Source: an uncultured Spirochaetaceae bacterium (lineage in GTDB: Bacteria > Spirochaetota > Spirochaetia > Sphaerochaetales > Sphaerochaetaceae). From it: 64,000 nucleotides of DNA. Under the pieces are notes generated by a model. That model made no database searches. It saw nothing but the letters and a program-made list of their open reading frames with translations, and was not told the origin of the DNA. Positions 6,490 to 44,730 of this stretch are shown in pieces. The DNA is taken from assembly GCA_944389975.1 (NCBI GenBank), contig CALXOH010000006.1:113177-177176 (forward strand), in the 5' to 3' direction. The stretch's first letter is position 1; each line of letters opens with the position of its first letter. The position numbers and the translations under genes were made by a program.

Positions 6490-7623
6490 ATGATGCGAAA
6501 CATTGATAGATACAGAGGTTGTTTGATCGGCGGTGCCGTAGGCGATGCATTGGGTTATCCAATCGAATTCTTACGCTATAATGAGATAATCAAACGATAC
6601 GGAAAAAACGGACTTTCCGAATACGTTCTCGATAACGGAATTGCCCGGATATCAGACGACACACAGATGACGCTGTTCACAGCCACGGGATTGCTTCTGG
6701 GTGCAGAGAGAGCAAGGATCAGGGGAATATCCGGGTCGCCTTCGAGCTATGTACGATACAGCTACAAAGATTGGTATCGGACGCAGACTGAAAATTTTCC
6801 ATTGAAGGAGCTCCGTTACTCGTGGCTTTCAGAGAAAGAAGAGATGTTTTCAAGAAGAGCTCCTGGAAACACATGCCTGTCAGCACTTGCATCGGGGAAA
6901 GAGGGCACGATTGAAAACCCGATCAACGACAGCAAGGGATGCGGAGGCGTTATGCGAGTCTCCCCTGTAGCTCTATTCTTCGGGGAGAATGATAATATCC
7001 ATGATTTTCATTTGGATGAGATCGATCATATTGCTGCAGAAGTTGCCGCCATCACACATGGACACCCATTGGGATACATTCCGGGGGCCGCACTTGTGCA
7101 TATAATCACTCTTCTTTTGAGAAACGCTACTTTGAGCTACGCAGTAAGCGATATGCTCTATTCGATCAGAAAGCAATTCGCTGATCCAAAGCATAATGCA
7201 TACGCGGATGAGTTTTCGAAGATAATCATGAAAGCAATCGTCCTTGCAAAAGAGAAAAAGCTGGAGGATATCGATGCGATAAGAACACTCGGGGGAGGTT
7301 GGGTTGGCGAAGAAGCGCTGGCAATAGCACTATATTCCGTCTTAAGGTATCCTGATGACTTTGAGAAGGCACTGACAGTTGCAACAAACCACGATGGGGA
7401 CAGTGACTCAACCGGAGCGATTGCAGGGAACATCCTCGGAACATACCTGGGATTGTCAGGAATACCCGGGAAATACCTGGAAAACCTTGAATTGAAAGAT
7501 CTCATCATCGAGATTGCAGACGATCTCTTCAAAGGCGGAGAGAGAAATACGAACTATGAAGAAGATCAGGACTGGCTTATGAAATATTGGCATTGCAGAA
7601 GGCCCGGAACTGAAGAATGGTAA
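6490..7623 (+). CDS. ADP-ribosylglycohydrolase family protein
   Basis: It has the family hallmarks RYRGCLIGGAVGDALGYPIEF and, near the C-terminus, NHDGDSDSTGAIAGNILG. The track ORF starts at 6385, but the domain begins right after the ATG at 6490. Confidence 0.85.
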   Translation: MMRNIDRYRGCLIGGAVGDALGYPIEFLRYNEIIKRYGKNGLSEYVLDNGIARISDDTQMTLFTATGLLLGAERARIRGISGSPSSYVRYSYKDWYRTQTENFPLKELRYSWLSEKEEMFSRRAPGNTCLSALASGKEGTIENPINDSKGCGGVMRVSPVALFFGENDNIHDFHLDEIDHIAAEVAAITHGHPLGYIPGAALVHIITLLLRNATLSYAVSDMLYSIRKQFADPKHNAYADEFSKIIMKAIVLAKEKKLEDIDAIRTLGGGWVGEEALAIALYSVLRYPDDFEKALTVATNHDGDSDSTGAIAGNILGTYLGLSGIPGKYLENLELKDLIIEIADDLFKGGERNTNYEEDQDWLMKYWHCRRPGTEEW

Positions 7624-7727
7624 AGTAAGGGAACTTAATATCACCATTCCCATGAATCAATTCAAATTACATCCAGAGGGCTTATCTCCTCTCGTCCATA
7701 ATACGCTTATCTGATCCTGATTAATCA

Positions 7728-7755
7728 CTAATTCGGCAGACGTCTGCCGAATTAG
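7728..7755. terminator. Perfect 28-bp palindrome between convergent genes (probable bidirectional hairpin terminator)
   Basis: CTAATTCGGCAGAC|GTCTGCCGAATTAG: every position pairs. It lies between the ARH stop (7623) and the nuclease stop (7791). No clear U-run follows. Confidence 0.45.
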
Positions 7756-7790
7756 GAGGAACGCTGGGGAAGGAAGAACAAGATGAAAGT

Positions 7791-8960
7791 TCATTTCCTG
7801 TACAGCTTTAAATTATCCAGGATTTTGTTGTAGAGGATGGAAGCGGCAACCTTTGCAGATTCGGTTGCTTCTTTCAAAGAGTCAGCCCCTTCCCAAAACT
7901 TACTGCCCGAGAAATCAGCAAGCATGAAACCAATCCTCCGCTTGATGCAATCCCAGTTGCAATCGAATTCGTATCCCACGCCGTAGCAAACGGATGGATC
8001 TTTTGCCAGGCAAACTACACCTAGATGAGTATGCGGGTCAAGGTTCTTAAAACACTCTTTTCTATACTCCTCGAAATCCTTTATGAGTATTTGCTGACTT
8101 ATCGAGAACCTGATCTTGTCAGCCAGATTGGAAGTATCGGGATTTCCCGCAAGCTTTGCCTTCAGCTCCTCTCCGATCTCTTTCAGCATATTAAGTTTCC
8201 TGCATACGTTTGATGCAATGGACAACACATCGCATTCATCCTTGCTTAAGGAAAGCAATGTATCTTGAATCTCCTTCACTGAGTTGAATTTCACGTTCTC
8301 GTAGACCATTTGAATGACTGCTCCTTTGTATTGCTCTACAGCTGACCAAACGTAATCTTTGCTTTGATCCTTATTCATCTTCTCCCATTCATCCAACCAT
8401 CCGATGATGTCATCTTTATATGAAAGGGATATCAATCTGCCTTCATCGATCACTTTCTCCACTATAGGGTCTCCTTCCATTCCATTTCCATATAGTGATT
8501 TCCCCGAGGGTTGCGTACCCCGAAGGGTGAGGTAGAAGTAGTAGACGATAAAACCTTTGGATTCCCAATGGTTCATGTACTTTCCAAGCTGGCCGTCGCC
8601 ATCCCCTGCAAGAATTTTGTTCTCAATTACAATTCGATGGTCTCCGTACATTACAACGATGTCAGTCCTACCTTTCTCATTGCCTTTGCCTGTTGCATAG
8701 TCCTCTCTGATCGCCCGTACCGGGAAATCATCAGCACATGGTTTCATGTCATTCATGTATCTTCCAATCCACTTAAGAAATGCCCTGCCTACGGATTTTT
8801 GATTTATCAATGATGCAATGACATCGCTATTCTTGTTCTCGTCGTGCAATACATTCAAAACATCAAGCAGGTTGATTTCAGGAAAAGGGTACTTGATACT
8901 TTCAGCATCAATTGAAGCATGGACACCATGTATCAGTTCAGTTATCTTCGACGTTTCCAT
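7791..8960 (-). CDS. PD-(D/E)XK nuclease superfamily protein (PDDEXK_4-like)
   Basis: 389 aa. GRTDIVVMYGDHRIVIENKILAGDGDGQLGKY matches the D...(D/E)xK core and the following Q-L-x-R/K-Y signature of this family. Confidence 0.7.
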   Translation of the reverse strand: METSKITELIHGVHASIDAESIKYPFPEINLLDVLNVLHDENKNSDVIASLINQKSVGRAFLKWIGRYMNDMKPCADDFPVRAIREDYATGKGNEKGRTDIVVMYGDHRIVIENKILAGDGDGQLGKYMNHWESKGFIVYYFYLTLRGTQPSGKSLYGNGMEGDPIVEKVIDEGRLISLSYKDDIIGWLDEWEKMNKDQSKDYVWSAVEQYKGAVIQMVYENVKFNSVKEIQDTLLSLSKDECDVLSIASNVCRKLNMLKEIGEELKAKLAGNPDTSNLADKIRFSISQQILIKDFEEYRKECFKNLDPHTHLGVVCLAKDPSVCYGVGYEFDCNWDCIKRRIGFMLADFSGSKFWEGADSLKEATESAKVAASILYNKILDNLKLYRK

Positions 8961-39596: not shown

Positions 39597-39659
39597 ACTC
39601 CTGATAATCTTTGATATCCCTAAGGGACAAGATGTAGTCTACTTTGTTTTCCCTCGAAA

Positions 39660-40502
39660 CTACAAGGCCGGGCGGCCGTCCAAAACCGATGCAATCGAAG
39701 CGATTAGTTCTTTTTCCACATCCCGGCACCTGTCGTACATCAGCAAATGGGTTCCTTCGTCGAAGATCTTTATCCTCACTCTTCCCTTCACCTTCGAAAA
39801 AGTCTCCACAAGACCATCAGGGGGTGCGGTCTCATCCTTCAGGCCGTGGTAGACGTACGTGGGAATCGTAACGCTTTCAAGCACATCAAGCGCCATTTTC
39901 TTCAATCGGGTGAACGCCAAGGCATCGGATGCGTAGAAATGCGACCAGTACTCCCTTCCGAGCACTTCGTCATCCCTCGGAGCGCCCGGGTATGAGAGGT
40001 GGTAGCTATCGTCGCTTTTCCACGGAATTGATCTCTCGTAATCCTCCGTTCCAAGCTTTTCAAGTTCCTCATCGCCGATGCCGAATGAAGTGGAGAATGC
40101 GGGTGCGATTAGAAACTGCATCGAAACTTTCTCATTTGAAGAGAGCAATACCGAGAGAAACGTTCCCATCGAATGGGAAACGAGAACTATGTCCGAATAC
40201 TCCTCCTCAAGTGTCTTGAGTACGTTTCTTGCCAAGCCCAGCCAGTCGTTCTCTTCGGATGAGCGAAAATCATCACCAGAGGTGCCCATCCCGGGAAGGC
40301 GTGGTATGAACACGTCGTAGCCCCGTTCGAAAAAGAGTGGGATCAGGGAATAAAACTCCCCCGGATAACCTGCGTAGCCATGAAGCATCAGGACTGACTT
40401 TCCGCTGTTTTCCTCATGAAGCTTCACTATGTCTTCTGCAGCAGCGACGGGCTTTGCCTTGTCCCCGTATACCCCAAGCCTCCACCTTCCTACATCTACC
40501 AT
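39660..40502 (-). CDS. Alpha/beta hydrolase (esterase/lipase-like)
   Basis: It has SVLMLHGYAGYPGEF (oxyanion region), a nucleophile elbow SHSMGT, and late D/H residues (KDETAPP, GTHLLM). The ATG at 40502 overlaps the upstream stop (ATGGTAG); the track start is 40541. Confidence 0.75.
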   Translation of the reverse strand: MVDVGRWRLGVYGDKAKPVAAAEDIVKLHEENSGKSVLMLHGYAGYPGEFYSLIPLFFERGYDVFIPRLPGMGTSGDDFRSSEENDWLGLARNVLKTLEEEYSDIVLVSHSMGTFLSVLLSSNEKVSMQFLIAPAFSTSFGIGDEELEKLGTEDYERSIPWKSDDSYHLSYPGAPRDDEVLGREYWSHFYASDALAFTRLKKMALDVLESVTIPTYVYHGLKDETAPPDGLVETFSKVKGRVRIKIFDEGTHLLMYDRCRDVEKELIASIASVLDGRPAL

Positions 40503-41407
40503 GACGCCTCCGATAACAAATTCAAAAGATCTATCCTGCAACTTACATTCGTCTTTGAGAATATGTTTGCCATGTGGTTGTTGACCGTGTTTACGCTTAT
40601 CCCGAGAGAGGATGCGATCTCCTTGTTCGTCAGCCCCTTCTTCACGAGCGCTATTATCTCCCTTTCGCGTTCTGTGATATGGTAGCTCTCATATATCCCC
40701 TCGGTTACCTTCTCTTCCTCCTCATCGCTCTTCTTCTCCCTTTTTTCCTTCATGGTCTCCCTGCTGTTTGCAGCAAAGAGGAACACGAGAAGCGTTATGA
40801 AATACGCACACGAGGAGGCGAGTATGACCAGCGTACGGATCGAAGCGATGAAAAGCGACAGAATGAAAAACGGCATGAGGGAAAAGGAGACGATCATCAT
40901 CACCAGTGTCACAAGCCTTATCGTCCTGTCTTTTATCCGGGGAAAGGAACGCCCCATCAGTATCGAGACGTACAGAATCAACGAAAGCATCATCACCAGT
41001 GCCGTAGTCGGAAACCACGGCAACGGGAGGAATATGTTCAGCATCCCTATGCCAAGGAATACCGTTCCGAGGATCGGAAACACCACCTTCTCAGCCTTGC
41101 TCGTAGGACGGGCGATCAGAAAGTTGAAGAAGATCGGGGAGAAGACGAAAAGGAACGCACCTACCATCACGGCCAGGGCCATGCATACCCCCTCGAGTAC
41201 CGAATATACGACCACCCCGGGGAAAAGGTTCAGAAAGGATGCGATGGAAAAGCAGAATATAAGGCCGAAGACGGTGGATGCGAACACCACCAAAGCCTTC
41301 GACCATTTGTAAGAGGCCCTCTCGCTCCATACGATCGCAAGCGCGAGATCCATGGATGAGAGGGTGAGTGCCAGAAGCGATAGAAGGAAGCTTGCTTCCT
41401 CCATCAC
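40496..41407 (-). CDS. Polytopic (about 8 TM) membrane protein with a C-terminal LuxR/GerE-type HTH
   Basis: About 230 aa of hydrophobic helices are followed by ITEREREIIALVKKGLTNKEIASSLGISVNTVNNHMANIFSKT. The start (GTG 41407 or ATG 41404) overlaps the RloB-like stop. Confidence 0.8.
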   Translation of the reverse strand: MMEEASFLLSLLALTLSSMDLALAIVWSERASYKWSKALVVFASTVFGLIFCFSIASFLNLFPGVVVYSVLEGVCMALAVMVGAFLFVFSPIFFNFLIARPTSKAEKVVFPILGTVFLGIGMLNIFLPLPWFPTTALVMMLSLILYVSILMGRSFPRIKDRTIRLVTLVMMIVSFSLMPFFILSLFIASIRTLVILASSCAYFITLLVFLFAANSRETMKEKREKKSDEEEEKVTEGIYESYHITEREREIIALVKKGLTNKEIASSLGISVNTVNNHMANIFSKTNVSCRIDLLNLLSEASW

Positions 41408-42036
41408 TTGAAGACCTTCTGGTTGTGGGACATGTCAGCCTTGCCGCATATCTCGGTGATGTCATCGTCGAAGGAAGGCATGCTCGTCACTTCAAGCCCG
41501 AGGTTGTATTTCTCATTCTCGTTCATCTTCCTTGCAGCAAGATCTGCAAATGCATGGCGCGGGAATAGCATCAAATGGAGGTTGAGCCCCTTTGTGAGGA
41601 GGTACTCGTCGCTCATCTGGAAACCGGGAAGCGCCTTTCTTACGACATCCCTGACTTTCTCCGGATCGCTCTCGTATCCCATGTTGGAATTCAAATGGAG
41701 GGCGAACCAGATCTCGAAACACGGATTGAACCAGCAGAGGTTGACTTTCTTTCTCAGCGCATAATCCGATTTGAACTCATTCACTTCATCAACGTTCGTA
41801 GATACATCGTCGAAGCCGAAAAGAGCCCATACCGTCTGGTACCTTCCCCCGTGCCTGAGGTGTGCAGCCTTGTCAATGAGATCCTTAAGGCTCTTTGCCC
41901 CTGCGTTAACGACGGTGAGGTTCATGTACCTGCAATCCTTCCTCATCTGGGAGAAGTAGACTGCTTCCGCTTTTGTTGCAGTCACCAGAAGGATCGTTCC
42001 CTTTGCTTCTGTTATGTTCTTCTTGCGATTAGGCAT
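41404..42036 (-). CDS. RloB-like (Toprim-related) protein
   Basis: RKKNITEAKGTILLVTATKAEAVYF, VWALFGFDD and LCWFNPCFEIWFALHL follow the RloB pattern (..EG.KTE..YF / VfD.D / SNPcFElWlLlH). The start was trimmed to ATG 42036, which overlaps the ATPase stop by 8 nt. Confidence 0.7.
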   Translation of the reverse strand: MPNRKKNITEAKGTILLVTATKAEAVYFSQMRKDCRYMNLTVVNAGAKSLKDLIDKAAHLRHGGRYQTVWALFGFDDVSTNVDEVNEFKSDYALRKKVNLCWFNPCFEIWFALHLNSNMGYESDPEKVRDVVRKALPGFQMSDEYLLTKGLNLHLMLFPRHAFADLAARKMNENEKYNLGLEVTSMPSFDDDITEICGKADMSHNQKVFK

Positions 42037-43312
42037 TCTCTTCCTCCTTCTCCGTCTTTTCAGATACAGGCGTTCCATCGTGGACGAAATAGAAGTCGCT
42101 CGTCATCGGCAGTGCCCCGAACGCCCCCTGGAGGTACCTTGTGTAGTTGGATACCCTGCTCCTGCCCTTGAAATCCGAAAGCGAGAAATAAACAGTACTC
42201 GATTCGTTGTCCTTCTGGGCAAACCACACTGCATCCTTCCTCAAGAGTCCATCGCGTAGAAGCGACGGGTTGCAATCCACGACCAAGAGCTGGCTGTGTT
42301 TGTTGCAGCTCTCGAATATCTCCACGAGGTGGCATAGCACATCGGGATGCAACAGCTGCCCGAAGTCATCGATCACGAGAACCTTCTCGGATACGAAGCT
42401 TTCGAAGAATGCGATTCCGATCGCCACGAGGCGCCTGAGGGAGAGCGACTCTGCAAGGAATGTATTGGAGTACCCATCGACTTTCTTGTCGTTGACGTAT
42501 ACGTGGGTGAATACGACTTGGCTCGTGCCGTCATCCTTCTTCCTCACCCCGACGCGTCTGATGTCAGTGATATCGAGCGCCCATAGGTAGTTGACGAGCA
42601 TGTCGCCCCAACCCGGATGCCTTGATAAGCTTTCTGCGACGAACTGCTCTGTCTGCGTGCCGACGCCCATCGGGAGGATCGATAGTGTATCAGTGAACCA
42701 CGAATAAAGTTCGCTCGACGTCTCCCCTCCGTTCTCTGCACTTGCCTGGAGGAACGTACGGGTCTCGGGAAGATTCTTCGCAGCCCTCTTCTTCTCGCCT
42801 CTGTAGAGCTTTCCGAAGCGGTAGTCGTAACCCCCGTTCTCCTCATTGAGCTTTCTTTCGAACATGACTTTCCTCGAGCTGTTGACCGTGTAGTAGAGAC
42901 TCTCTTCGTAGATCTTGTCCCTGCTTGCCTTCAAAGTGTACGTGGCGATAACGGTCGGGTTCTCATCATCCCCCACTATCCCTTTCTTCAGGATTACCCT
43001 GATCGAGATCGTCGCGGGCGTTGCCTTGTCTATCCCATATGCGAAAACGGTACCCGAAAGGGATGAAAGAAGTGGATTCTCCACATCCTTGGATGAGGTC
43101 ACTATTCTTTTGAGAACTTCGAGGGCCCTTGTGAACGAACTCTTTCCAGCTCCATTCGGACCAATGATTGCACTGGTCTTGATCAAGTTCAGTTTTTCGT
43201 TGACAGATACGATCTTGTCCGGATCCAGCCTGTTGTCCTTGACTGCCTCGAAACTGATCGTCTGACTCGACTTCACTGACTTGAAGTTCGCGATCGTCAT
43301 GCTTATGAGCAT
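42029..43312 (-). CDS. ABC-type AAA ATPase (AAA_21/AAA_15-like, AbiLi/RloA-like)
   Basis: It has MLISMTIANFKSVK, Walker A GPNGAGKSS, Walker B/D-loop VLVIDDFGQLLHP, and a C-terminal DAVWFAQKD...YLQGAFGALP. The start was trimmed to ATG 43312, 6 nt after AGGAGG. Confidence 0.8.
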   Translation of the reverse strand: MLISMTIANFKSVKSSQTISFEAVKDNRLDPDKIVSVNEKLNLIKTSAIIGPNGAGKSSFTRALEVLKRIVTSSKDVENPLLSSLSGTVFAYGIDKATPATISIRVILKKGIVGDDENPTVIATYTLKASRDKIYEESLYYTVNSSRKVMFERKLNEENGGYDYRFGKLYRGEKKRAAKNLPETRTFLQASAENGGETSSELYSWFTDTLSILPMGVGTQTEQFVAESLSRHPGWGDMLVNYLWALDITDIRRVGVRKKDDGTSQVVFTHVYVNDKKVDGYSNTFLAESLSLRRLVAIGIAFFESFVSEKVLVIDDFGQLLHPDVLCHLVEIFESCNKHSQLLVVDCNPSLLRDGLLRKDAVWFAQKDNESSTVYFSLSDFKGRSRVSNYTRYLQGAFGALPMTSDFYFVHDGTPVSEKTEKEEENA

Positions 43313-43635
43313 CGCCATCCTCCTATAGGTGTATGAATACAAAAGGGCCAAGATATGGTGCAGAAGCATCGGGCTTCCGTAGAGAGGGACCTGGCTAGTA
43401 CAAGCACACGGGCACCATCAAAGACCCTTGGCAAAAGTATATGACGAAATCAAATCAAATACGAATTTTTTATTTATTTTGCAGTTTTCCCTTTTTTGAT
43501 ACCCCGTGGCAGGCAAAAGTTGATGAAAAAACGACAGAATATTATGCATTATTCCTACATTTTTAATACAAAAGTCTTAACAAGAAGATATCAAACAAGA
43601 AAATTTTTCAAAAATAGCCATATAAATATATGGTA

Positions 43636-44730
43636 TTATTCGTCTTCGAGTATCACATCGAGTGCGCTTCCGTACTCCCCATCCCATTTCTCACCGATTC
43701 CTTCAAGCTGTTTACGCGCTTCCTCGTTGCTGTTTTTTATCTCAAGAAGGGTCGAGTAAAGGCCTGCTGCTTCTTCCGAGTAACATTCCTTGTTTACGTT
43801 CGAAAGGATCAGGAGGGCCCCGTCGAGGTCCCCGATGGCGGCAGTGATGAGGCTTGCGTTGTATCCCGAGGGAAGGTGGCCTGATACATTGAATATGCGC
43901 AGGAATTCGTTACGCGCATCTATGTAACGCCCTTCCTCGACCATGCTGTACGCAATCTCTGCGCCCTCAAGCTTCGGTTTGTTGCGCATCAGCGATATGT
44001 CCCTGTACGTCAGAGTCGGCACCAACTCCCTTTCCAGTCTTCCGCTTATCGACGAAATCATATCCCGGAACGTGTAATACGGGTCACTTGTGTACAAAAA
44101 CGGGCCTATCAGGGTGGATTCGTGTCTATCGAGGGGGAATCGGACAGAGCCTATGAGCCTCTCGCTCGATGCATCGACTATGCTCACTGAAAGTACCAGG
44201 TAGCACGTTCTGTCGTAGTGGTACTCGACGTCCCTGACAATCCTCGGTTCTCCGGATGAATTGAATACGCTTCGGGAGGAGCTGTTTGAGTATATGAACT
44301 CCTGGACTGACATCGAATCGACTTTCGGAATCACGATCGCATCAACCCCGTACCATTCAAATAGATCGTTCCTGTTTTCCATCGAAAGGATCCGATCTGT
44401 ATTGTCAGGGAGCATCACAGACTCGAAGTAATTGCTCTCAGAGAGCGTTTTGACCACGGTATCGGTCAAAGCTGACGCAACCCGCCTTGAAAGGGATGAG
44501 TCGTATGAGGAAGGGATATATCCATGGTTCTGCCTCGAAAGGTTGTCCCTTGTGGGGATGTAGCGATCAGGCGAGCGGAAATACCTGTACGGTATGCTCG
44601 AAGCGATAGCTATGTTCCTGTAACTTCCCATGTCGATCCTGCTCGGCTGCCTGTAGCGTATACGCATGGTGGTCGAGCAAGAGGAGATTAGAAGAACCAG
44701 TATGGATAGAAAAACAAAAACCTTCCTCAT
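43636..44730 (-). CDS. Hypothetical lipoprotein with a TPR-like C-terminus
   Basis: It has the signal peptide and lipobox MRKVFVFLSILVLLISSC. I recognised no family. Confidence 0.6.
   Translation of the reverse strand: MRKVFVFLSILVLLISSCSTTMRIRYRQPSRIDMGSYRNIAIASSIPYRYFRSPDRYIPTRDNLSRQNHGYIPSSYDSSLSRRVASALTDTVVKTLSESNYFESVMLPDNTDRILSMENRNDLFEWYGVDAIVIPKVDSMSVQEFIYSNSSSRSVFNSSGEPRIVRDVEYHYDRTCYLVLSVSIVDASSERLIGSVRFPLDRHESTLIGPFLYTSDPYYTFRDMISSISGRLERELVPTLTYRDISLMRNKPKLEGAEIAYSMVEEGRYIDARNEFLRIFNVSGHLPSGYNASLITAAIGDLDGALLILSNVNKECYSEEAAGLYSTLLEIKNSNEEARKQLEGIGEKWDGEYGSALDVILEDE

Follow-up and report, generated by a model that had tools for sequence, protein, structure and literature searches.

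What does a gene pair resembling the abortive-infection system AbiL do in an operon with a membrane transcription factor and a lipase-like hydrolase? The question is raised by a four-gene block on the minus strand (39660-43312) of a 64,000-nt stretch of DNA, hereafter the window, from contig CALXOH010000006.1 of an uncultured Spirochaetaceae bacterium (assembly GCA_944389975.1). The block encodes an ATP-binding cassette (ABC) ATPase, an RloB-like protein of Toprim type, a membrane-integrated LuxR-type regulator and an alpha/beta hydrolase. A preliminary description, made from the sequence alone, regarded it as either an extended defence module or a chance operon fusion. Comparison with relatives points elsewhere: the block is probably built on an exapted AbiL-type pair, an ATP-binding protein with a pseudo-nuclease, alongside a membrane transcription factor, and probably does not serve as an active module for abortive infection. 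Vertical descent, selection like that on aminoacyl-tRNA synthetase (aaRS) genes and the loss of near-invariant residues from both AbiL-like proteins argue against the extended defence module. AbiL-type pairs themselves are already known; what is new is an AbiL-like pair, predicted to be catalytically degenerate, in a core operon with a LuxR regulator of seven transmembrane (TM) helices (7TM). Literature searches returned nothing relevant for Sphaerochaeta with AbiL, no report of RloB with LuxR in this sense and no description of this ATPase clade, in line with the earlier remark that no such pair was known to be joined to a membrane LuxR protein and a hydrolase; the linkage is unusual.

Organization of the block

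The four genes, in order of transcription, are as follows.

42029-43312, minus strand: AbiLi-like ABC ATPase, 427 aa (Pfam AAA_21, PADLOC AbiLi)
41404-42036, minus strand: RloB-like pseudo-Toprim protein, 210 aa (Pfam RloB, 1.4e-14; PADLOC AbiLii, 9.8e-11)
40496-41404 (ATG start) or 40496-41407 (GTG start), minus strand: membrane-integrated LuxR-type regulator, 302 aa (GerE match)
39660-40502, minus strand: alpha/beta hydrolase of the monoacylglycerol-lipase/carboxylesterase type, 280 aa (Pfam Abhydrolase_6/Hydrolase_4, about 1e-15)

The three gene joins are overlaps of 8, 1 or 4, and 7 nt, and all three were reproduced on reading the minus strand, as first described. The ATPase and RloB genes share 8 nt, ATGCCTAA (42036-42029). 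At the RloB/LuxR join, GTGATG (41407-41402), the RloB TGA shares 4 nt with a GTG start or 1 nt with an ATG start; homologues of the LuxR protein begin at the ATG (MEEA...), an exact look-up of the GTG-start product gave no match, and the ATG-start form was used thereafter. The LuxR and hydrolase genes overlap by the 7 nt ATGGTAG (40502-40496). The ATPase start at 43312 (MLISMTI...) is preceded by AGGAGG, and the same N-terminus occurs in all homologues. Simple scans found three promoter-like sites inside the block against 5.3 expected from shuffles and six terminator-like sites against 5.3, taken as no higher than the shuffle expectation, so that the earlier statement of no promoter or terminator signal inside the block stands. 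Block composition is unremarkable and the upstream gap at 43313-43635 alone is AT-rich (GC content 0.40), also as first reported. An Rfam scan of the whole window matched zero families, and the window has no tRNA genes.

Profile searches confirmed the domain assignments of all four proteins, with matches to AAA_21, RloB, GerE and Abhydrolase families. The ATPase matches Pfam AAA_21 at 1.2e-12 and the PADLOC AbiLi profile at 1.7e-58, with a weak PADLOC match to AriA (2.9e-12); together with the AbiLii match of its neighbour, the defence-system check that had been proposed is positive. Adjacent AAA_21/AAA_15 and RloB (PF13707) genes that match the AbiLi and AbiLii profiles, joined by an 8-nt overlap, constitute the architecture of an AbiL system.

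Conservation, descent and selection

One genome per species was scanned; 308 genomes had a LuxR relative, and the best 80 loci of those were kept. Their titles are nearly all Spirochaetales, Spirochaetaceae, Sphaerochaetaceae, Sphaerochaeta or Candidatus Ornithospirochaeta metagenome-assembled genomes (MAGs). A handful of the 80 genomes carry other names and are probably mis-binned. Gene order was read by tblastn with the window proteins, and denominators below are the loci long enough to tell.

The first three contexts, with LuxR identities of 60%, 45% and 44%, all read ATPase-RloB-LuxR-hydrolase and then gltX-glyQS-tyrS, and gene order is identical in every one of the 80 loci. The ATPase is present in 72/72 loci, RloB adjoins LuxR in 79/79 and the hydrolase adjoins LuxR in 69/76, which bears on the earlier question of whether a LuxR protein and a hydrolase accompany RloB homologues elsewhere; among the four genes, that of the hydrolase is least constant. 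The synthetase operon gltX-glyQS-tyrS lies downstream wherever the contig extends that far. Junctions within the block are equally constant: ATPase-RloB distances are 10 nt or less in 73/74 loci, 41 of them overlaps, RloB-LuxR distances are 10 nt or less in 78/80, and the LuxR-hydrolase median is -4 nt. By comparison, the hydrolase-gltX gap in relatives is at least 34 nt (median 96 nt) and takes inserts of up to 5 kb. Tight junctions on one side and a loose, promoter-bearing gltX gap on the other mark the four genes as one compact unit with the aaRS operon as a conserved neighbour. Neither chance fusion nor insertion as an island accounts for the four-gene linkage: it recurs in every sufficiently long locus among the 80 species, and the position before gltX, which had seemed an odd insertion point, is conserved synteny. 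An insertion or island origin was also considered for the window itself and rejected, as there is no tRNA gene and no shift in GC content.

Across the 80 species, identity to the window is 51-93% for the ATPase, 66-83% for gltX, 34-60% for LuxR and 29-46% for the hydrolase, which places the ATPase range close to that of gltX and far above those of LuxR and the hydrolase. Ratios of nonsynonymous to synonymous substitution rates (dN/dS), calculated by the Nei-Gojobori method for pairs of relatives, are 0.009-0.037 for the ATPase, 0.006-0.077 for RloB, 0.035-0.17 for LuxR, 0.055-0.14 for the hydrolase and 0.007-0.07 for the three aaRS genes. Purifying selection on the ATPase and RloB is as strong as on the adjacent tRNA synthetases. 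Pairwise protein distances follow the mean aaRS distance (r = 0.73 for the ATPase, 0.76 for RloB and 0.83 for LuxR), as expected under vertical descent. The block has been passed down vertically as a conserved operon within the Sphaerochaetaceae/Ornithospirochaeta lineage. A patchy, mobile or island-like distribution was not found in these 80 species, where synteny is fixed and dN/dS is aaRS-like; the neighbours of canonical AbiL-like plasmid pairs are transposases, toxin-antitoxin genes, a methyltransferase or cas9.

Replaced catalytic residues in the AbiL-like pair

Canonical plasmid AbiL-like pairs align with the block pair over their full length at 24-26% identity, and a canonical pair reaches about twice the PADLOC scores of the block pair (326 versus 196 bits and 82 versus 41 bits). 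In ABC ATPases, the Walker B glutamate and the H-loop histidine form the catalytic pair, and the P-loop binds nucleotide. The Walker A motif of the block ATPase is intact (GPNGAGKS). Alignment with canonical plasmid ATPases and outgroup representatives shows three other motifs to be altered.

Walker B: canonical hhhhDE, clade hhhhDD (Glu to Asp)
H-loop: canonical THD/N, clade DCN (His to Cys)
Signature: canonical SxGT, clade SLSL (GT to SL)

The DD, DCN and SLSL columns are invariant in 74 clade ATPases, none of which has the competent ABC set of Walker B Asp-Glu, H-loop His and SxGT. In 132 outgroup representatives, the same columns hold Glu in 129, His in 126, Gly in 132 and Thr in 130. With the Walker B Glu and the H-loop His replaced and the P-loop retained, the ATPase is predicted to bind ATP with little or no hydrolysis. 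The AbiL-type assignment made in the preliminary description holds for architecture and profile matches of the pair, and fails on catalytic residues and distribution.

By sequence score, the ATPase clade stands sharply apart. Among 1.84 billion cluster representatives, a search gave 18 clusters at or below 1e-30. About 10 clusters belong to the clade; those with full-length sequences have 39-73% identity and 272-504 bits. After the weakest of these (272 bits, 39% identity) there is an abrupt fall to 138 bits (about 30-32%), the level at which generic AAA_21/AbiLi-like proteins follow in their thousands. In the outgroup, the closest ATPase (32% identity) is encoded by a solo AAA_21 gene whose neighbour is an HTH/Peptidase_M78 gene (HTH, helix-turn-helix). 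A metagenome scan for deep relatives, made with a generic P-loop pattern, gave one main-clade locus among the matches listed. Sequence searches of the PDB gave no meaningful match for the ATPase or for RloB. Loss of the H-loop His is not exclusive to the spirochaete clade: the sequence is AVQDVNL, without the His, in an ATPase of the same broad family that is annotated as an abortive infection protein on E. coli plasmid pMTY1881_NA3 (1301-3041). The gene that follows it encodes a 145-aa protein that is not RloB.

The RloB-like partner has changed in a comparable way. It was compared with canonical RloB proteins by MAFFT, with three sequences, and by hhalign, against 21; hhalign aligned the clade with the canonical family at a probability of 98.9% (E = 2e-17) and MAFFT agrees. 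The canonical Toprim glutamate E32 (of CEG) maps to A20, in a column of Ala, Thr or Cys, and no acidic residue stands at either candidate Toprim Glu column in any of 80 sequences (0/80). The first Asp of the canonical DxD, D91, maps to G74, which is Gly in 80/80. Canonical E132, the Glu of CFELW, maps to a variable column (E in 41, D in 17, P in 11, and others). The RloB/Toprim metal-binding set of a Glu after strand 1, DxD after strand 3 and the CFELW Glu was thus not found in the clade. Two invariant motifs that canonical RloB does not have are present: F-x-Q-M-R-K-D-C-R-Y at residues 28-37 (QMRKDCRY at 30-37) and C-G-x-A-D-M-S-H-N-Q-K at residues 197-207. Their Cys, His and Asp residues could form a metal or ligand site. 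An AlphaFold2 model (mean predicted local distance difference test score, pLDDT, 92.7) has a four-strand alpha/beta core, in which helices separate strands 15-19, 40-44, 68-74 and 99-103 and the degenerate motifs follow strands 1 and 3; its C-terminal domain is helical.

The membrane LuxR regulator and the hydrolase

The LuxR protein belongs to a family in which 383 full-length homologues, about 300 aa long, were counted. Its C-terminal HTH matches Pfam GerE (PF00196, 1.5e-15, residues 245-294), the HTH residues are invariant across an alignment of 30 homologues, and the four helices of a GerE HTH are present in the model. The AlphaFold2 model (pLDDT 88) comprises seven TM helices, a long linker helix from TM7 to the cytoplasm and the GerE HTH. 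Loops 1, 3 and 5 and the stretch after TM7 are positively charged, as read in the sequence. Model and loop charges agree on 7 TM helices with the N-terminus outside and the C-terminus inside; the earlier count of eight TM helices has to be revised. Residues 1-240 match no Pfam or NCBIfam family, and no autoinducer-binding or receiver domain was recognised there. A Foldseek search of the PDB with the model found only generic 7TM bundles similar to G-protein-coupled receptors or rhodopsin, at E values of 3.5e-3 or weaker, which point to no particular relationship. Conserved intramembrane residues (S17-M18-D19, W95 and P100) suggest a ligand or ion site. The C-termini in the same alignment almost invariably read ...EASW-stop, and the window codons TCA-TGG-TAG (40496-40504) contain the hydrolase ATG; part of the EASW conservation may reflect the hydrolase start, since the reading frames overlap.

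The hydrolase has the GxSxG-type nucleophile, Asp and His of its fold. The Ser111-Asp223-His252 triad (Ser in HSMG) is kept in 69/69 sequences. Its closest solved structures are thermostable monoacylglycerol lipases (3.9e-11) and small carboxylesterases. Inspection by eye found no N-terminal signal peptide, and the enzyme is predicted to be cytoplasmic. Both the hydrolase and the LuxR protein look functional.

A CpsB-like partner and the history of the block

A third enzyme is often associated with the pair. A CpsB-like PHP phosphoesterase (PF19567), whose closest solved structure is S. pneumoniae CpsB (1.1e-5), is encoded directly upstream of the ATPase in 29/70 loci and has been lost in 41/70. 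In the closest relative of the window (locus L007, ATPase 93% identical), a cpsB-like gene of 636 nt (211 aa) lies between a lipoprotein gene and the ATPase gene (7222-8090). There is no PF19567 gene directly upstream of the window ATPase. The 323-nt gap that occupies this position (43313-43635) is collinear over its first approximately 205 nt with the lipoprotein-cpsB intergenic region of L007, with blastn blocks at identical offsets in both (41-51, 93-108, 135-143, 171-179 and 195-203); its last approximately 118 nt correspond to the position of cpsB in L007. As L007 carries the gene there and tblastn finds no CpsB remnant in the gap, this segment is a clean cpsB deletion scar.

Deeper relatives give some order to these gains and losses. 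A locus with 39% ATPase identity (L094) reads CpsB-ATPase-RloB and then a DEAD-box helicase gene, and lacks LuxR; even here RloB is degenerate, and it has the motif QMRRDCRY. A relative with 49% identity reads CpsB-ATPase-RloB-LuxR-gltX without a hydrolase. CpsB was probably an ancestral third member of the module, because it occurs in 29 of the 70 loci and in the deepest relative. A likely history would begin with a trio of PHP protein, ATPase and pseudo-Toprim protein, continue with gain of the 7TM-LuxR gene and usually also of the hydrolase gene, and end with repeated loss of cpsB.

Upstream signals and neighbouring genes

The regions that flank the block have the following features.

43313-43635, minus strand: promoter/leader region of the block; its first part is collinear with L007 and its last part is the cpsB deletion scar
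43585-43595, minus strand: conserved upstream DNA motif TTTGATATCTT (consensus TTTGATATCCT), a candidate operator
43528-43543, minus strand: another conserved block, ATATTCTGTCGTTTT (consensus ATATTCCATCRTTTT), which follows the first motif after about 45 nt
43436-43441, minus strand: putative -10 element TATACT of the block promoter (collinear block 195-203)
39597-39659, minus strand: hydrolase-gltX gap of 63 nt, the boundary of the block, with a promoter-like -10 TAGACT at 39641-39636
43636-44730, minus strand: predicted lipoprotein, 364 aa (MRKVFVFLSILVLLISSC...), no NCBIfam match

The first upstream motif, TTTGATATCC(T), precedes the first block gene in 25 loci, at a distance of 134-282 nt and in most cases 166-211 nt. 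It has five matches in the window against 1.45 expected, of which only two are clearly intergenic. The second block is 94% identical at the same offset in L007 and recurs across the leader set. Both are kept in about 24 species despite saturated synonymous divergence and are candidate operators, perhaps for the LuxR protein itself. In the window, in L007 and in a further locus (L010), TTTGATATC pairs with an inverted GGRTATCAAA about 90 nt downstream. A structured leader RNA was considered and dropped in favour of DNA motifs, as minimum free energy folds were not consistent across 21 loci. Relatives without cpsB have TTGCA-17-TATAAT about 50 nt before the ATPase ATG. The window TATACT would have been inherited from the cpsB promoter of its relative, and was missed by the simple promoter scan.

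At the other end of the block, most relatives have a recognisable promoter directly upstream of gltX, for example TTGCAG-17-GATAAT or TTGCTATAAT. Read-through from the block into gltX is possible, since no terminator is predicted between them. An inverted copy of the upstream motif, GGGATATCAAAG (39609-39620), lies 26 nt before the gltX start; an operator shared with gltX was rejected, as this copy is probably due to chance and the motif does not occur in the other 55 gltX upstream regions.

Where a homologue of the lipoprotein and the ATPase were both called, the homologue is the gene immediately before the block (71/71 loci), and it is constant even where genes further upstream differ. It evolves fast (25-59% identity). 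Loci with a lipoprotein-block gap of 520-750 nt (L012, L014, L022, L009, L033, L039 and L046) have an extra open reading frame of about 120 aa right after the lipoprotein gene. In Sphaerochaeta loci (L065 and L085) the extra gene is CobO-like (VYTGNGKGKT...). A small gene at this place is thus optional.

What the block may do

The exaptation reading stated at the outset can be extended to a mechanism. The ATPase would work as an ATP-dependent switch, with slow hydrolysis or none, and would bind the pseudo-Toprim subunit, by analogy with the way in which AriA holds AriB in PARIS, and the ATPase-RloB complex would work by binding and not by release of a nuclease. Its most likely target would be the cytoplasmic linker and HTH of the co-translated 7TM LuxR factor, which would itself sense a membrane or lipid-derived cue that the lipase-like hydrolase may produce or remove. 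The output would be transcriptional, possibly with autoregulation through the upstream sites TTTGATATCC and ATATTCCATC, and would not be cell suicide. The invariable translational coupling of the genes suggests that the pair feeds into, or is controlled by, the LuxR regulator. A bolder version, in which a defence module of ABC ATPase sensor and Toprim effector has become a housekeeping signalling device that steers the 7TM LuxR factor, with the ATPase as switch and the former nuclease as a pseudo-enzyme adaptor, is put forward only tentatively, and we consider it possible but doubtful.

Several observations count against the exaptation reading. The physical link between the pair and the LuxR protein is drawn from gene order and translational coupling only, and the deep relative that carries the pair without LuxR indicates that the pair has a function of its own. 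The Walker B change from Glu to Asp is conservative and slow hydrolysis could remain; the AbiLi and AbiLii profile matches are still significant. RloB retains E24, which corresponds to the second Glu of canonical CEGxKTE, as well as D76 in 65/80 sequences and an acidic residue at position 77 in 79/80, and its invariant C35, C197, D201 and H204 could form a different active site. Foldseek searches of the PDB with the RloB model gave weak, generic Rossmann-like matches and no Toprim protein. Nearly all genomes are MAGs, and the counts are drawn from genomes with a LuxR relative.

Several known systems can be compared with the block. RecF-RecR consists of an ATPase of ABC/SMC type (SMC, structural maintenance of chromosomes), in which ATP is mainly a dimerisation switch, and a Toprim-fold partner that binds and does not cut. 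It is a precedent for a non-nucleolytic ATPase/Toprim pair, although the families differ (RecF/RecR versus AAA_21/RloB) and the block has no DNA-repair context. Degenerate ABC sites such as those of TAP1 and nucleotide-binding domain 1 (NBD1) of MRP1, with Walker B Glu changed to Asp, the H-loop His lost and the P-loop intact, bind ATP and hydrolyse it poorly. These are transporter domains in heterodimers, whereas the block ATPase is a soluble AAA_21 protein in which every copy is changed, and both composite ATPase sites would therefore be degenerate. ToxR/CadC regulators, like the block LuxR protein, tether a DNA-binding domain to the membrane within one polypeptide, but with one TM helix and an N-terminal OmpR-type domain in place of seven TM helices and a C-terminal GerE HTH. 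AbiL of Lactococcus lactis (AbiLi/AbiLii) and plasmid-borne AAA_21 and RloB pairs resemble the block in having two overlapping genes, one for an AAA_21/AAA_15 ATPase (about 420 aa) and one for an RloB-family protein (about 210 aa). AbiL pairs are plasmid- or island-borne, whereas that of the block is chromosomal and syntenic, evolves at a housekeeping rate, has replaced catalytic residues and new invariant motifs, and shares its operon with a hydrolase, a 7TM-LuxR protein and, in the ancestral state, a PHP protein. PARIS (AriA and AriB) and the OLD nucleases likewise combine an ABC ATPase with a Toprim-fold subunit. AriB, however, is a DUF4435 protein with an intact Toprim site that is released to cleave tRNA-Lys; the Toprim site of the block is degenerate, neither release nor cleavage is expected, and the ATPase and RloB proteins of the block have no sequence match to any solved structure. 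AbiL falls in the same ATPase tree as PARIS (PMC11464382), and PARIS, OLD and AbiL have been described as ABC ATPase/Toprim systems with tRNA cleavage and an ATPase-as-sensor logic (PMC11464382; PMC10440598; preprint 10.64898/2026.07.10.737580).

Alternative explanations

It could be argued that the block still works as an AbiL-type abortive-infection or toxin-antitoxin system, now fixed in the family, in which the ATPase would sense phage, the RloB protein would be the toxic nuclease, and the LuxR protein and the hydrolase would be accessory sensor or effector. The AbiLi, AbiLii and Pfam RloB matches agree with this, as do the overlapping two-gene layout known from plasmid AbiL pairs, the retention of some acidic RloB residues and the standing of ABC ATPase and Toprim pairs as established defence modules (PMC11464382; PMC10440598). 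We nevertheless judge it distinctly improbable: the Toprim Glu and the first DxD Asp are gone from 80/80 sequences, the replaced ATPase residues are kept in 126-132 of the 132 outgroup representatives, the PADLOC scores are halved, and, where canonical pairs are scattered patchily over plasmids and islands among transposases, toxin-antitoxin genes and cas9, this block has a fixed syntenic position in 80 species with dN/dS equal to that of aaRS genes. At the opposite extreme, the idea that the operon is a chance fusion, or that overlapping open reading frames gave an artefact of annotation, is refuted and retains next to no credence, as the same four genes and junctions occur in 69-80 independent species-level genomes, all under purifying selection.

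A further alternative keeps the pair as a housekeeping complex and removes the LuxR protein from its function. The pair would then be a RecF/RecR-like clamp on DNA or RNA, for example tRNA, that works with the PHP phosphoesterase, and linkage to the LuxR, hydrolase and aaRS genes would be inherited synteny only. RecF also has a DD Walker B and its partner RecR is a non-nucleolytic Toprim protein. The deep relative has CpsB, ATPase, RloB and a DEAD-box helicase without LuxR; CpsB accompanies the pair in 29 of 70 loci; three aaRS genes lie beside the block; and related ABC/Toprim systems target tRNA (PMC11464382; 10.64898/2026.07.10.737580). This explanation remains rather unlikely in our view. 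Mere synteny would not hold the RloB-LuxR junction at 10 nt or less in 78 of 80 loci across saturated dS, and the LuxR family was never seen without the pair. The cpsB gene is dispensable, having been lost in the window and in 41 of 70 loci, and the aaRS operon has its own promoter and is preceded by kilobase inserts in several species.

Implications

PADLOC/DefenseFinder-type tools would label this block as an AbiL system across the whole family, which is a warning for censuses of defence systems. The exaptation reading would make the block a clean and datable case in which an ABC-ATPase/Toprim defence pair was taken into a conserved operon, with both enzymes now probable binding proteins under housekeeping-level constraint. 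The block also brings to light an uncharacterised family of 7TM-LuxR regulators, with at least 383 proteins, that was always found coupled to the pair. If the bolder version were true, the block would provide the first case of an OLD/AbiL-type pair that had moved from abortive infection to gene regulation, and LuxR regulators would have a new input pathway. Cultured relatives such as Bullifex porci and Sphaerochaeta could show what ATPase/Toprim pairs do besides killing cells.

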